Source: a virus
Lineage: Duplodnaviria; Heunggongvirae; Uroviricota; Caudoviricetes
Direction: 5' to 3' (one strand)
Virus record (IMG/VR): IMGVR_UViG_2778261632_000005
Span: 1-42,705 of that record
DNA: 42,705 nt
Shown: piece by piece, positions 1,417 through 17,017 of the stretch
Layout of the letters: every line of letters starts with the position of its first letter
Numbering within the stretch: the first letter of the stretch is position 1
Notes under the pieces: model-generated
What the model was told of the DNA's origin: nothing
The model's input: only the letters and a program-made list of their open reading frames with translations
Databases searched by the model: none
Program-made: the position numbers and the translations under genes

Positions 1417-1701
1417 TTAGCTTTGGTGGAACAGCATAGAGCGGCCCGGGTGAGACATCAAAACAGCGCCAGCGTATATCACAGGTTCTTTCTTCACCTT
1501 CTTTGTGCCAGTCAACGACATCTGCCACTGGCTCGGCGTTCCTACCTGCCAACACTCATCTACTACCTTCAACATATCCGCGAGAATGTAAGCTCTGTTC
1601 CCGCCGTTTGAGTACTGGGTATCATGCTGCAGGTGTTCGCGTATCTGGTGCAGTCGATCGAGTGATGCAGGACCGTGCGCCGGGTGGTTGTTAGTTGTCA
1701 T
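1417..1701 (-). CDS. Hypothetical protein (94 aa)
   Basis: ATG overlaps the TGA stop of the upstream methyltransferase gene (ATGA coupling). Confidence 0.5.
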   Translation of the reverse strand: MTTNNHPAHGPASLDRLHQIREHLQHDTQYSNGGNRAYILADMLKVVDECWQVGTPSQWQMSLTGTKKVKKEPVIYAGAVLMSHPGRSMLFHQS

Positions 1702-2477
1702 GCTGCACGCTCCTGATTATTTATTTCTACGCAGCACGCTGAATGCTGCAGCTGCCACTCGCGGAACTTGTCCATTTCCAAGGGCTTTAATTCTGTCCAC
1801 CCGATGGGCCACCCCATTAGCCACTCGACCCATTCCGGGTTCAGTGGGCCAGTTACCGTATCCAGCTGCGGTGCAAATGACGGGATTCTGGATGGCGTAT
1901 TTACCTGCTGCGCTAAGCTGGTTCCCGTCATCTTCTCTGTGTACAGCCTCCCCGGTTCGCGTCGCTCGCTGATGGCGTTGTCCACATCCTGTGCGACGAC
2001 CCAAATTCTGTCTCGCTTGTGAGGCGCTCCAGCGTCGAGTGCTGAAATACGACACCATTGCGCGTCATACCCCATTTCGGCAAGGTCACCAACGACCACT
2101 GCAAGTCCTCTTCTAACAAGCAACGGTGAGTTTTCCACGAGCACGAAGCGCGGTCGAACCTCACTGATAATTCTTGCCATGTGCCGCCATAGTCCAGATT
2201 TCTCGCCATCAATTCCCGCTCCCTTTCCAGCGGCGCTAATGTCCTGGCATGGAAACCCTCCAGAAACGACATCAACAATTCCTCTCCATGGCTTTCCGTC
2301 AAAACTGCGCACGTCAGACCAAATCGGGAAAGGTCTGAGGATTCCATCGTTTTGTCGTTGCGCGAGAACTTGTGCGGCGTAGGCATCACGTTCAACTGCG
2401 CAAACTGTGCGCCATCCAAGGAGGTACCCTCCGAGAATTCCTCCGCCAGCGCCTGCGAAAAGAGCCAACTCATTCAC
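1698..2477 (-). CDS. DNA (cytosine-5)-methyltransferase, short orphan type
   Basis: Motif I FAGAGG, motif IV GGFPCQDIS (PCQ catalytic Cys), motif VI VLVENSP, motif VIII HKRDRIWVV; no adjacent restriction endonuclease gene. Confidence 0.85.
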   Translation of the reverse strand: MNELALFAGAGGGILGGYLLGWRTVCAVERDAYAAQVLAQRQNDGILRPFPIWSDVRSFDGKPWRGIVDVVSGGFPCQDISAAGKGAGIDGEKSGLWRHMARIISEVRPRFVLVENSPLLVRRGLAVVVGDLAEMGYDAQWCRISALDAGAPHKRDRIWVVAQDVDNAISERREPGRLYTEKMTGTSLAQQVNTPSRIPSFAPQLDTVTGPLNPEWVEWLMGWPIGWTELKPLEMDKFREWQLQHSACCVEINNQERAA

Positions 2478-2985
2478 ATGCTCCTCCCTGGCACTCCCCC
2501 TTCACGCCAATGCCAGCGGCTTGTAGTTCATCTTCTAGGTGACAAATCTCTTTCGCCATCCTCATTTGGTTGCTTTCGGCGCGGTCCTTGTAGTCACGGA
2601 AATCTCGCTCTACTTCTAATCGCTTCTCTCGGTGAATGCTTTCCAATGATTTAGCTTGGTGTAAATCCTCTGCCTGTCGCTCAAGCTTGAATCGCTGAAG
2701 TTCTACCAACTCATTTGCGGCTTCCAGCTCATCCATCAGCGCCACCACATCAGGGTCGCTAACATCGACGGCGATGACGCGTGACTGTTCGTAGTGGTAG
2801 TCAGCGATGCTGCGACCTTCTGCGTAATGCCCCCCAGCATCGTCATAAGTTGCTCCAGTACAACCGTAAGTAATTCGGCTGGCAGAAATACGCTGCACTG
2901 TCATTTCCGCGCCGCAAATGTGGCATTTAGGTACTGGCTGCGGTGAATAGCGCTCACGCAGCGCCTGTTTGTTGAGTGCTGTCAT
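2470..2985 (-). CDS. Hypothetical protein with N-terminal Cys-rich segment and coiled-coil C-terminus
   Basis: 171 aa ORF; CHICG...YGC putative zinc-binding pattern; charged heptad-like C-terminal half; stop overlaps the methyltransferase start. Confidence 0.55.
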   Translation of the reverse strand: MTALNKQALRERYSPQPVPKCHICGAEMTVQRISASRITYGCTGATYDDAGGHYAEGRSIADYHYEQSRVIAVDVSDPDVVALMDELEAANELVELQRFKLERQAEDLHQAKSLESIHREKRLEVERDFRDYKDRAESNQMRMAKEICHLEDELQAAGIGVKGECQGGACE

Positions 2986-4802: not shown

Positions 4803-5284
4803 TACGCAGTACCTTCACGAAGTTGGTTAGCGAATAACAGAGCCTGATTACCAGCGTAAACAATGCTTTCTTCTTGCTCTTCTTTCCCTATGGCAATAGT
4901 GACGTTTGCGTACTTTTCCACGCCAGTGGCCTGGATATCGCGAATAACCTGATCGGTTACTGGAGTTAACTCGCGTAATTCTCTCTGCGCCTCCAGCATG
5001 TGCATATTGGTCGGCGATTTGGTATGACGTTCAACGATGCGGTCGCACTCTTTGGCCCAACAATTAACATCGTCGCGTAAAACAGTGTTCTCGATGGCCA
5101 GTGTTTTACGCTGTTCCATTGATTCGCACAGCGCGACACCCTGAACATCGTAGCGGTTCGCCAGTTCATTCATCAGCCACTGGGAAGCAGGTGGCAGGAG
5201 AGGGGCAGCTTTACGGGCTGCATCGATCAGTTGCTCTCTGGTCATACGTGGTTGTAACTCAGTGACGTTCTGTGTGGTCGTCAT
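4802..5284 (-). CDS. Hypothetical protein (160 aa)
   Basis: Start MTTTQNV chosen because GGAGA lies 5 nt upstream; the ORF is open further to 5395. Confidence 0.5.
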   Translation of the reverse strand: MTTTQNVTELQPRMTREQLIDAARKAAPLLPPASQWLMNELANRYDVQGVALCESMEQRKTLAIENTVLRDDVNCWAKECDRIVERHTKSPTNMHMLEAQRELRELTPVTDQVIRDIQATGVEKYANVTIAIGKEEQEESIVYAGNQALLFANQLREGTA

Positions 5285-5530
5285 GGTTAGTTTCTCCGTG
5301 TTATATGCGCCCTGCACGGCGCTGAATTTTGGTTGCACGAATCCATCGCCAAAAGGCGAATAAAAGTTTGGGTTTCGTTTCAGTAAATGCCCCATGAAGA
5401 GGCACTTAGTGAAACGGGCGACTGCAATCGCCGGTAAGTTTCTCCACTCAATTGAAAGCGCGTTCCGCTGGTTTTGGATTTAACGAACTGGCACTTAATG
5501 ACAAGGGACAGAACGCGCTTTCAGTTGAGT

Positions 5531-5576
5531 AAAAAGGGCGGTACCAGGGACTTCAAAGGTTGGTACTGGTACCGCC
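5531..5576 (-). terminator. Intrinsic terminator downstream of the tRNA
   Basis: Perfect 11-bp inverted repeat (5537-5547 / 5566-5576) followed on the minus strand by a U-run (5531-5535). Confidence 0.6.
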
Positions 5577-5628
5577 AAGACTCCACACAGCTTTCTTACT
5601 TCCTTGGATCACGAGAACTACGTGATTC

Positions 5629-5705
5629 TGGTGCAGCATGCAGGATTCGAACCTGCGACCCACGGCTTAGAAGGCCGCTGCTCTATCCATCTGAGCTAAT
5701 GCCAC
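5629..5705 (-). tRNA. tRNA-Arg (anticodon UCU), prophage-borne
   Basis: 77-nt cloverleaf read on the minus strand: D-arm GCTC/GAGC, anticodon loop CUUCUAA, T-arm GCAGG-UUCGAAU-CCUGC, 3' ACCA; the acceptor stem has two adjacent G-U pairs. Confidence 0.8.
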
Positions 5706-5709
5706 AACT

Positions 5710-5773
5710 GGAAGCGCACTCCACCTGTTTCACACCTGTCACCCATAACTGGTAAGTAAAGGAGTGCGCTTCC
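5710..5773. repeat. Perfect 13-bp inverted repeat (GGAAGCGCACTCC / GGAGTGCGCTTCC) with a 38-nt spacer
   Basis: Arms at 5710-5722 and 5761-5773; spacer contains CACCTGT twice; sits 4 nt upstream of the tRNA 5' end. Confidence 0.7.
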
Positions 5774-5885
5774 ATGTTGTGTGCCTGTCTTTTCACCACA
5801 TCAGGCTCGGTGGTTCTCGTGTACCCCTACAGCGAGAAATCGGTTAAAATCTTCTCACCCCTACAGAGAGTGATGGATTCCACCG

Positions 5886-6386
5886 ATGGACAACAAATGG
5901 TTGCAGGAAGTACTGCGTTCAATCCTGCGTGACATAGACATTAGGCGTTTAATGCATATGCTAATCATTTTCGTCATTCTCACGGTGCTTTTGCCTGACT
6001 CTGTTAAGCAGTCTGTTGGTGCTCATAATCCGGAATTCCTTCCAGCTTTCAGCCTCTACTATCTGATGATCATCTGCGTAAGTTTTTTTATTTCTTCGCT
6101 TACCAGCTTCACTACTAAATCTCTTTTAAATGCGCTTCATACATTGGCTTTACGTATTCGAGTCATCATGCTTTCAGAACCTGAAAAGCAGTGCCTTCTG
6201 TCTTTCATAAAGACCGGTGACCATGTTGTGTATGCAAAAAATCACAATCCGGTGGTTGAGCAGTTGGTCTATAAAGGCATTCTTAGGAAAACCTACTCAC
6301 TAAATTGTGGCCCAGACATGGAAGGGTACGTCATAGAAGACAAATATCATTTCCACGTGTTAAGGCACTTATCTACCAGTCTTTGA
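5886..6386 (+). CDS. Membrane protein, putative superinfection-exclusion / abortive-infection candidate
   Basis: 166 aa ORF in an AT-rich island; two predicted TM helices then an 80-aa soluble domain; weak RBS; lies between the tRNA and the repressor. Confidence 0.5.
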   Translation: MDNKWLQEVLRSILRDIDIRRLMHMLIIFVILTVLLPDSVKQSVGAHNPEFLPAFSLYYLMIICVSFFISSLTSFTTKSLLNALHTLALRIRVIMLSEPEKQCLLSFIKTGDHVVYAKNHNPVVEQLVYKGILRKTYSLNCGPDMEGYVIEDKYHFHVLRHLSTSL

Positions 6387-6622
6387 CCAAAAAGCTTTAT
6401 CTTTAAAGCAAGCTTTTTAAGCGCAATAGAAATTAGTTTTTCCAGTCGACTTCTATTGCGACGTTCTCGCCTGACCAGCTCATCGAACGTATCAGGTAGG
6501 ACCTTAATATCTGCAGGCAGCTTTTTAAGGTCACAACCGCATTCTGGGCACTTCGTATAAAGTGGCTCAAATTTCCACGATCTAGACAATGCCTCCATCT
6601 TTCTGTTTGCGTATGTGCTCAT
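6347..6622 (-). CDS. Small putative zinc-ribbon protein (91 aa), first gene of the leftward early transcript
   Basis: CPECGC motif and a basic RRERRNRSR stretch; AAGGG RBS 8 nt upstream; 3' end overlaps the convergent 166-aa ORF by 40 nt. Confidence 0.5.
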   Translation of the reverse strand: MSTYANRKMEALSRSWKFEPLYTKCPECGCDLKKLPADIKVLPDTFDELVRRERRNRSRLEKLISIALKKLALKIKLFGQRLVDKCLNTWK

Positions 6623-6691
6623 TACATGCCCTTACATTTATTCCCGGGTTTTACCAGATGAATGTAACTATGGGGTCGTCTGATGTGTTTT

Positions 6692-6746
6692 AAATGTACC
6701 TTTAGTTACCATCATGGTCAAGTAAGTTAATGTACTTTTTGTTACC
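6692..6746. promoter_or_regulatory. Two tandem operator-like repeats (putative OL / pL region)
   Basis: AAATGTACCTTTAGTTACC (6692-6710) and TTAATGTACTTTTTGTTACC (6727-6746); a third copy at 7501-7521. Confidence 0.55.
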
Positions 6747-6798: not shown

Positions 6799-7458
6799 TT
6801 AGATGTTCTGCGTTATCTGAACAACTTTGCCTACAATGCGGCAATTGCCATCAATGGGGATCGGCTTAAAGGCGGGATTAAGCGGCATGAGATATGAGTA
6901 AGGGCTATCCCAAACAAGTTTCTTCACAGTCGCTTCTGCTGAACCATCAAGTATTGCAACGACAATTTTCCCATACAGGTCATCAAGTTGTCCGTAATGT
7001 GGCTCAACAATAACGATTGAGCCCTCCGGAATTGATGGAAGTCCATGTGGGTTAGTCATTGACTCACCACGAACTACCAATCCGAAAACTTCATCAGAAA
7101 CGTTTGCTGTGGTTTGAGTCCATGAAATCACATCAGTAAGCCTTGAACATGCATAGGTATCAGTCCATACCCCGGCCTGAACAGCAGAGATAATAGGAAC
7201 GGCGGTAGGTGGCTTCAGGTATGGGATAACTTTGGTGTCATCTTGAGTCTCATCACCCTTGCCGTAAAGAATCCATTCAGGAGTGGTCTGTAAAGCCATC
7301 GCTAGTTGGTGAAGGTTTTCTCCGTCAGGCTTAGTTGTACCGTTCTCCCATTTGGTAACGGACACTCTACTCACCCCAAGGCGTTTAGCCAGGGTCTGCT
7401 GAGTTATATCGAGCTGGACTCGCCGGGATCTTATTCGGTCTTTCATCTCTGTTTTCAT
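6799..7458 (-). CDS. cI: Prophage repressor, cI-like (HTH plus LexA-type S24 autopeptidase)
   Basis: N-terminal HTH (QQTLAKRLGVSRVSVTKWENG), Ala-Gly cleavage site (VQAGVW), Ser nucleophile GESM and Lys (TVKKL). Confidence 0.9.
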   Translation of the reverse strand: MKTEMKDRIRSRRVQLDITQQTLAKRLGVSRVSVTKWENGTTKPDGENLHQLAMALQTTPEWILYGKGDETQDDTKVIPYLKPPTAVPIISAVQAGVWTDTYACSRLTDVISWTQTTANVSDEVFGLVVRGESMTNPHGLPSIPEGSIVIVEPHYGQLDDLYGKIVVAILDGSAEATVKKLVWDSPYSYLMPLNPAFKPIPIDGNCRIVGKVVQITQNI

Positions 7459-7550: not shown

Positions 7551-7748
7551 ATGTTTAAAACTGACGTCATAGAACACTTCGGAGGGGTATCAAAAACCGC
7601 GAGTGTTTTGGGAATTTCCCATCCTGCAGTGTGCAGATGGGGTGATGTGATCCCTCAGAAGCAAGCTTTTGTTATCGAACGTATCACTAAGGGCAAGCTT
7701 AAATACGATGCCAGCCTTTACCAAAAGTCTACAGACACAGCAGCTTAA
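7551..7748 (+). CDS. cro: Cro-like small HTH regulator
   Basis: 65 aa, divergent from the repressor; HTH (SKTASVLGISHPAVCRW); AGGAGG RBS. Confidence 0.7.
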   Translation: MFKTDVIEHFGGVSKTASVLGISHPAVCRWGDVIPQKQAFVIERITKGKLKYDASLYQKSTDTAA

Positions 7749-16753: not shown

Positions 16754-17017
16754 TCATTACAAAGCTCATCTGCTGGTGGACTATAAACAGATAGCATTAC
16801 AGCAGGCATTCACTGAGTGCCTGTGATAATGTCAAATTGTGGTGAATGCGCAGGCTGATGCGCGTGCAACAGCTACTCATTGAAACGGTAGTTATGTCGG
16901 AGTTCAGCACCGGCCACCACACCTAATTGAATTGTCAGTGGCTAGGGTAGCTCCTGAAAAGCGGCATCGTCACCGCCTGCCACTGATAACATGACGAGCA
17001 ACTAAGACGAGGTTGTG

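Follow-up and report, generated by a model that had tools for sequence, protein, structure and literature searches.

Why a transfer RNA (tRNA) gene in the early region of a prophage should be bracketed by inverted repeats, one of them ending within a few nucleotides (nt) of its 5′ end, is the question raised by the viral record IMGVR_UViG_2778261632_000005 (IMG/VR; 42,705 nt, analysed over its whole length and hereafter called the window). The whole 42.7-kb stretch is a lambdoid, e14-like Escherichia coli prophage, and the element in question is a tRNA-Arg(UCU) gene at positions 5629–5705 on the minus strand. With a probability of about 0.6, we interpret the locus as an intact argU-type tRNA that lies in the early-left operon inside a dicF-type cassette, from which it would be excised by ribonucleases (RNases) III, P and E, supplying AGA decoding. 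Sequence comparison indicates that neither repeat belongs to the tRNA and assigns the upstream hairpin to a conserved family with several copies, and the homology of the repeats to a known processing cassette supports this explanation of their presence. What is new is that a dicF-type cassette carries a true tRNA as its payload, and how widely the cassette is spread across phages. An odd tRNA between palindromes thereby becomes a testable processing model, borrowed from the dicBF locus of prophage Qin, the one homologous locus in which RNases have been mapped.

An argU-type tRNA in the early-left operon

ARAGORN detected a single tRNA in the window, tRNA-Arg(tct) at 5629–5705 (minus strand), and the Rfam tRNA model scored the same interval at 65.6 bits (gathering score, 29), bearing out the first-pass annotation, made from the sequence alone, of a prophage tRNA-Arg(UCU) with a normal cloverleaf. 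The gene is 77 nt long, encodes its own CCA end and has A73 as discriminator. Comparison with host argU (dnaY), which had been recommended at that stage, places it in the argU type, with 86% identity to the K-12 gene and differences mostly at covarying stem positions. The two tRNAs agree in the anticodon, in the D-arm save for a single base of its loop, in the T-arm and in the anticodon loop CUUCUAA. They diverge in the stems of the acceptor and the anticodon, where the changes are paired, and at position 73, which is A instead of G. The acceptor stem (5′-GUGGCAU/AUGCUGC-3′) does contain the two adjacent G–U pairs noticed earlier, U2·G71 and G3·U70. In the phiV10 homologue the 3′ strand of this stem is AUGCCAC and pairing is fully Watson–Crick; the AUGCUGC of the window is two transitions away, so that its two wobble pairs represent two transitions that preserve pairing. 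The identity elements for arginyl-tRNA synthetase are A20, C35, U36 or G36, and A73 or G73; the tRNA has A20 (in the D-loop AGAUGGAUA), C35, U36 and A73, together with A37 and the encoded CCA. It is thus probably an ordinary, functional rare-codon tRNA that, from its UCU anticodon, would read AGA, as had been proposed. Uetakevirus phiV10, SPN1S and Klebsiella prophages carry tRNAs of the same family.

Genes in the window run in the order int and xis, early-left genes (minus strand), the tRNA (minus), sieB (plus), a cI-like repressor (minus), cro (plus) and ymfL. A promoter scan found one sigma-70-like site upstream of the tRNA on the tRNA strand, the pL-like promoter TTGACC-17-TACATT at 6693–6721 (minus strand); taken with the gene order, this places the tRNA in the early-left unit, ahead of its first terminator. 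In lying between the repressor region and int/xis, it differs from the tRNAs of Shiga toxin (Stx) phages, argN and argO, which lie downstream of Q. An attachment-site (att) duplicate or relic, for which a comparison with prophage att sites had been suggested, is ruled out: the gene is full-length and sits about 4.5 kb into the prophage, with int, xis and eight early genes between it and the boundary. Across the 57 open reading frames (ORFs) of the window, AGA and AGG occur at 9.15 and 6.65 per 1,000 codons, respectively, compared with K-12 averages of about 2 and 1, and there are 10 AGA codons in the int ORF and 10–12 in the tail-fibre ORFs; such usage agrees with the classical role of codon supply. 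We infer that the tRNA is expressed in this prophage, where it would most likely add to the host's scarce AGA-reading tRNA for a phage genome rich in AGA, including int and xis further down the operon. The segment 5400–5800 is 100% identical in E. coli strains PCP07014 and 23CRST032.

Hairpins flanking the tRNA and their relatives

The upstream hairpin (5705–5779, minus strand) was delimited by inverted-repeat search, folding and homology to the hairpins of Qin, mEp390 and the related loci L008 and L007. Its inner stem (5709–5722/5761–5774) is perfect over 14 bp, encloses a 38-nt spacer (5723–5760) and ends 3 nt from the tRNA 5′ end; the perfect repeat and the spacer length had been described correctly, and the 13 bp and 4-nt distance first given need correction. 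An outer helix, CAAC/GUUG, pairs 5776–5779 with 5705–5708 across a bulged A at 5775 and takes in tRNA nucleotide +1. The whole forms a helix of about two turns (4–6 outer pairs and 14 inner pairs, with one bulge) upstream of the payload and the DicF-type terminator. Folding of this region, as had been proposed, predicts a stable stem (−36.9 kcal/mol; z = −5.7 relative to shuffled sequence). The window has only four places with perfect inverted repeats of 11 bp or more whose loops do not exceed 60 nt, and three of these places are within 5453–5774. First-order Markov shuffles yield 0.75 hits with 11-mers, 0.03 with 13-mers and 0 with 14-mers; chance alone would produce such repeats far less often.

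Three nucleotides past the CCA of the tRNA begins a trailer hairpin (AUCACG-UAGUUCU-CGUGAU; 5608–5626, minus strand), recognized by sequence reading and in the region fold; trailer hairpins with another loop or stem follow the tRNA or an STnc100-like payload in phiV10, L018, L090 and L109. Next comes a DicF-like terminator module (5531–5594, minus strand) that was identified by inverted-repeat search, fold and a weak DicF match. It consists of a 5′ tail, AAAGCUGUGUGGAGUCUU, and a perfect 11-bp stem (5537–5547/5566–5576) with an 18-nt loop, followed on the minus strand by C and UUUUU (5535–5531), and folds at −20.3 kcal/mol (z = −4.7). The perfect stem and U-run of the first-pass annotation are therefore real, and a G+C-rich stem followed by a U-run on the transcribed strand is what characterizes an intrinsic terminator; a simple terminator scan did not list the module, probably because the loop limit of that scan was 8 nt. 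By position, the module is the first terminator of the early-left operon. The terminator is conserved in relatives that lack the tRNA: locus L005 matches window 5400–5605, with the terminator and the hairpin beyond it, at 98% identity, and L009 and K-12 e14 have the same terminator stem. Because it stands at the same place in these tRNA-less relatives, it says nothing specific about tRNA expression, so the ideas that it is the tRNA’s own and that it argues for expression have to be given up.

Beyond the two bracketing repeats reported originally, both of which exist, lies a further hairpin that had been missed. This second family hairpin (5446–5530, minus strand; inverted-repeat search and fold) abuts the terminator U-run and comprises 20 bp with one mismatch (arms 5446–5465/5511–5530, 95% complementary) around a 45-nt loop, with z-scores of −6.3 on the minus strand and −5.95 on the plus strand. 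It is kept in L004, L005, L006 and mEp390. The segments 5449–5474 and 5705–5730 are 73% identical, so the arms of the two hairpins are related, and the tRNA with its terminator is flanked by two related hairpins.

Hairpins of this family occur without an adjacent tRNA in L008, Klebsiella phage L001, mEp390 and Qin, and are also recorded in e14 and the Uetakeviruses. Across 13 members, 96.8% of alignment cells are paired, and 9 of the 12 inner pairs change on both sides. The 5′ arm has the invariant pattern CA.AAC..G.AAGCGCA, and the 3′ arm has GTGCGCTTCC.GTTGTG. Stems are conserved, and loops vary in both sequence and length (23–106 nt) across L008, L001, mEp390, L007 and Qin. A resemblance to integron attC sites was considered and rejected, as the hairpin ends CACAAC and GTTGTG(G) break the YYY and RRR of the attC pattern RYYYAAC...GTTRRRY and the annotated neighbourhood has a phage tyrosine integrase only, without cassette ORFs.

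A processing model drawn from Qin, and its alternatives

The dicF locus of K-12 Qin consists of a family hairpin (L141 2173–2258), a payload of about 110 nt starting GUGGCAAC, DicF (76.7 bits) and an STnc100-like RNA (34.1 bits). Like the window locus, it belongs to an early operon under repressor control in a lambdoid prophage, and the two have in common the succession of family hairpin, payload RNA and GGCGGUA...CCGCCCUUUUU terminator. The Qin hairpin aligns with that of the window and has a near-identical 3′ arm, GTGCGCTTCC.GTTGTGGCA. They differ in the payload, which is a non-tRNA RNA in Qin and a true tRNA in the window. For Qin, a preprint by Ragunathan and Vanderpool (bioRxiv 10.1101/2023.04.14.536235) reports, in confirmation of Faubladier et al. 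(1990), that RNase III makes the 5′ end of a 190-nt DicF species by cutting between +813 and +814, that RNase E makes the 53-nt DicF, and that cells without RNase III lose the upstream ydfA RNA. A distance of 190 nt, taken back from the 3′ end of DicF, leads to L141 2246–2251, and the dicBp −10 element (1426–1431) implies a start at about 1438 and thus a +813 near 2250. As both estimates fall in the 3′ arm of the Qin hairpin (2235–2258; NC_000913 1,649,234–1,649,257), the homologous cut in the window is predicted at about 5709–5714, that is, 4–9 nt upstream of tRNA G+1. Among the three functions first offered for the upstream repeat, that of a processing determinant is accordingly the best supported, given the homology to the Qin hairpin and the mapping of an RNase III cut into its 3′ arm. 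Processing through RNase III as well as RNase E has been demonstrated for Qin; by analogy, the same processing would take place in this prophage.

A permissive Rfam scan of the homologous region of e14 returned full-length, sub-threshold matches to DicF over the terminator (28.5 bits) and to STnc100 over the segment standing in the place of the tRNA (29.2 bits), which indicates that the tRNA fills a slot that receives other payloads elsewhere. The STnc100-like RNAs (RF02076) of e14 and Qin (29.2 and 34.1 bits, both below the gathering score of 47) have a terminal GUGGUG/CACCAC helix and lie in or beside the cassette; Rfam comparison gave no STnc100-like sequence in the window. Irregular, bulged helices of about 20 bp resembling that of the window also punctuate the early region of T7, the lambda N leader and lambda sib, where RNase III hairpins stand between units of a polycistronic early transcript. 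This likeness is an analogy of mechanism, and no sequence relationship is expected.

Under the processing model, derepressed pL would transcribe a 91-amino-acid ORF antisense to sieB, followed in order by the upstream hairpin of about 20 bp (5779–5705), the tRNA (5705–5629), the trailer hairpin, the DicF-like terminator (5594–5531), the second hairpin (5530–5446), a structured leader and the early-left genes. RNase III would cut the 3′ arm of the upstream hairpin at about 5709–5714, leaving the upstream RNA with a stable terminal stem and freeing a precursor that is about 185 nt long and begins with a short 5′ leader. RNase P would remove this leader at G+1, and RNase E and exonucleases would trim the A/U-rich trailer, including the hairpin at 5608–5626, back to the encoded CCA. 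Transcripts ending at the terminator would constitute an immediate-early unit, and read-through RNA would meet the second hairpin and the structured leader before reaching the early-left genes. The tight spacing between hairpin and tRNA probably arose by recombination within a shared GTTGTG. If the model is correct, the phage supplies a rare-codon tRNA as an immediate-early product, excised from the transcript on which the AGA-rich int and xis are later encoded.

Several points weigh against this model. The covariation test is partly circular, as family members were picked as hairpins because they were paired. Mismatches within the family are no more often G·U on the tRNA strand than A·C (23 versus 30), revealing no strand preference; as a means of assigning the hairpin to a strand, this comparison was uninformative and was set aside. 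The second hairpin folds slightly better on the plus strand (−38.7 versus −35.8 kcal/mol). The outer helix of the upstream hairpin overlaps tRNA nucleotides +1 to +3; when the whole region is folded at minimum free energy, it competes with the acceptor stem, itself weakened by the wobble pairs, and could be an obstacle to maturation rather than an aid. The terminator loop of 18 nt is long for an efficient intrinsic terminator. The Qin cut is placed from a length of 190 nt estimated on a gel and from a start deduced from a promoter.

The downstream repeat could alternatively be the body of a DicF-like, trans-acting small RNA that is freed by RNase E, with the tRNA riding in its precursor. The terminator module gives a weak match to the Rfam DicF model (RF00039; 14.6 bits, E = 1.3, model positions 1–52, at 5536–5589 on the minus strand) that is nevertheless full-length and is seconded by the stronger e14 copy; it also has the motifs UUGGCGGUA.CAG and CCGCCCUUUUUA in common with DicF, and its 5′ tail, CUGUGUG(G/U)AGUC, is conserved across loci. 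However, the score is far under the gathering score of 48, so that by this threshold the module falls outside the DicF family, and the 5′ tail is unlike that of DicF. Pairing with the ftsZ start region, predicted with RNAduplex, was no better than for shuffled sequence (z = +0.37 for the full module and −0.48 for its 5′ 30 nt) by a test that discriminates poorly; DicF itself reached −1.74. We regard such a small RNA as a plausible but somewhat unlikely explanation.

It is also possible, and in our view unlikely, that the upstream repeat is functionless: a recombination linker or scar, one of the palindromes at module boundaries at which lambdoid segments are swapped, whose proximity to the tRNA records a single exchange. 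In alignments, the window tracks the tRNA-less loci L001 and L008 as far as GTTGTG and then the tRNA loci L007 and phiV10 from GTTGTGG onwards; as the match switches at this point, the junction lies inside the hexamer common to all family hairpins. A hairpin with the stem of the window’s upstream hairpin and much of its loop stands after the terminator in L115, which indicates that family hairpins are interchangeable between positions and move. Homology between the window and its E. coli relatives ends at varying points around the cassette, and the near-equal frequencies of G·U and A·C mismatches favour neither strand. The suggestion of a recombination relic in the first-pass annotation thus survives as far as the junction in GTTGTG is concerned, a sequence common to the tRNA-less relatives, and does not survive as an att-site duplicate. 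Against a mere scar, for which decay would be expected, the hairpin persists with compensatory changes in phages that differ greatly, and its Qin homologue coincides with an RNase III-dependent RNA end, loss of RNase III altering the stability of the upstream RNA. The scar and processing readings are not exclusive.

Two further alternatives concern the tRNA itself. It might mainly replace or shield host tRNA-Arg cleaved by a defence nuclease or a colicin D-type toxin, rather than serve codon supply: its acceptor stem differs from that of argU at most positions while the remainder is nearly identical, its neighbour on the opposite strand is a superinfection-exclusion gene, and relatives have other defence-like genes at that spot. 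We consider this improbable, given that in the anticodon stem-loop, which anticodon nucleases usually attack, the loop is identical to that of argU, with no sign of escape mutations, and that an AGA-rich prophage suffices to explain the tRNA. The tRNA might instead be a decaying relic, unexpressed or unchargeable and merely hitch-hiking, as could be argued from the two adjacent G·U pairs in its acceptor stem, from the promoter scan, which found no promoter of its own, and from the rarity of the arrangement (at least 80% of the 401-nt query, window 5400–5800, is covered in only 4 of 5,426 complete E. coli genomes). The high covariance-model score, the retention of pairing by all substitutions relative to homologues, the intact identity elements and CCA, and the persistence of the tRNA family, with the neighbouring RNA on its strand, in Uetakeviruses and in numerous viral contigs make decay quite improbable.

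Finally, a role of the hairpin, notably of its loop with two copies of CACCTGT (5722–5728 and 5733–5739, both present as first described), as a DNA or RNA site for a protein such as a sieB regulator or a ParB-like early protein is highly improbable: although the copies lie 11 nt apart, the hairpin is about 50 bp upstream of a P22-like PsieB region and the loop part CAGTTATGGGTGACAGGTGTGAAACA recurs in L115, the first copy is lost in L003 (the closest relative), L008, L001 and Qin have unrelated loops, and P22 has the PsieB region without the hairpin. CACCTGT was therefore dropped as a conserved motif, and the protein-binding site of the first-pass annotation is left without support.

The wider cassette and its neighbourhood

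Tentatively, the hairpin–payload–terminator unit may serve enterobacterial phages as a general slot for stable RNAs, both in early operons and in morons; its conserved CACAAC...GTTGTG bases would act both as RNase III marks and as crossover points for payloads. The slot holds tRNA-Arg(UCU) in the window, L003, L004 and the Uetakeviruses, holds tRNA-shaped STnc100-like RNAs in e14, Qin and Stx2 phages, and is empty in L005 and L009. If the processing model is correct, the DicF locus would be one case of a widespread modular cassette rather than a K-12 curiosity, and several annotated hypothetical proteins would overlie structured RNAs. In e14, the coding sequence ymfH (L140 5070–5381; NC_000913 ~1,201,069–1,201,380) overlies the family hairpin, the DicF-like terminator and the STnc100-like RNA. 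The ymfH ORF call looks doubtful, as do those of mEp390_036 and PhiV10p04.

In fuller cassettes, the payload is preceded by a conserved, non-coding RNA core of about 165 nt with five helices, which occurs in Uetakeviruses, Stx2a_WGPS2, mEp390, the P1-like phage D6, Jedunavirus and CPS-53-like prophages. It lies at L015 2490–2710 and L007 2640–2830 (both on the minus strand), and also in L012, L014 and L013; the consensus fold has 29 pairs, 13 of them with compensatory changes, and several invariant G·U pairs that are valid only on the tRNA strand. One 18-mer of the core matches at least 120 viral contigs. Among the matches listed, which represent 110 unique loci, 22 are followed by a same-strand tRNA-Arg(tct) and 14 have tRNA(cat) just upstream. 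The latter tRNA (L014 ~2690–2775, minus strand) occurs in phage D6, in whose record it is un-annotated, and in 13 related viral contigs, ending about 20 nt upstream of the 165-nt RNA on the same strand. In some contigs the RNA has its own −10 element and terminator. It gave no match in Rfam and is absent from the window, K-12 CPS-53, e14 and the HK022 early region, and none of the 30 matches listed from complete E. coli genomes lies over an annotated feature. The put RNA of HK022 was rejected as a relative (nhmmer gave no match in the HK022 early region). A preprint on the Pas small RNA deals with small RNAs of the late region and thus with a different locus. The 165-nt RNA was found in 1,376 of 5,426 complete E. 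coli genomes; an un-annotated RNA present in a quarter of E. coli genomes merits separate study.

Downstream of the second hairpin in the window, sequence, inverted repeats and alignments define a structured leader (5285–5445, minus strand) for the early-left gene that comes next (ATG at 5284), with two 5-bp hairpins in it whose loops are UUGCAG or GUGCAG (5417–5432 and 5307–5322). The loop is kept and the stems differ in L008, L009, L015, L001 and e14, a pattern expected of a protein-binding RNA hairpin. No boxA (YGCTCTTTA) with at most one mismatch was found beside these hairpins or elsewhere in 5250–6700, and counts over the whole window were at chance level. Antitermination of the rrn or lambda type through boxA/boxC in the hairpin arms, to which UGCUCUU-like strings in some family members had pointed, was rejected in view of this absence and these counts.

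On the other side of the tRNA, window 5780–5968 shares 81% identity with P22 over the PsieB promoter and the beginning of sieB/esc, a region that in P22 gives a 105-nt antisense RNA, sas. P22 has neither hairpin nor tRNA at this place, and ral comes directly after. Within the PsieB-homologous region, the window has a direct repeat, ACCCCTACAG(C/A)GAGA, at 5823–5845 and 5857–5879, and relatives with other genes at the sieB spot have CCCCAACAA repeats in its place. The 91-amino-acid ORF mentioned above (6347–6622, minus strand) is un-annotated in RefSeq, stands immediately 3′ of the pL-like promoter and overlaps the 3′ end of sieB by 40 nt; its product has a CPECGC motif and an arginine-rich segment, RRERRNRSR, that resembles N-type RNA-binding motifs. 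Further along, annotation places the cI-like repressor, of the LexA family, at 6799–7458 (minus strand) and cro at 7551–7748 (plus strand). Elsewhere in the window, the DNA cytosine methyltransferase gene at 1698–2477 (minus strand) is a pseudogene with an internal stop according to RefSeq, and an int-alpA RNA was recognized by Rfam at 16935–16999 on the plus strand (43.2 bits; gathering score, 35.8).

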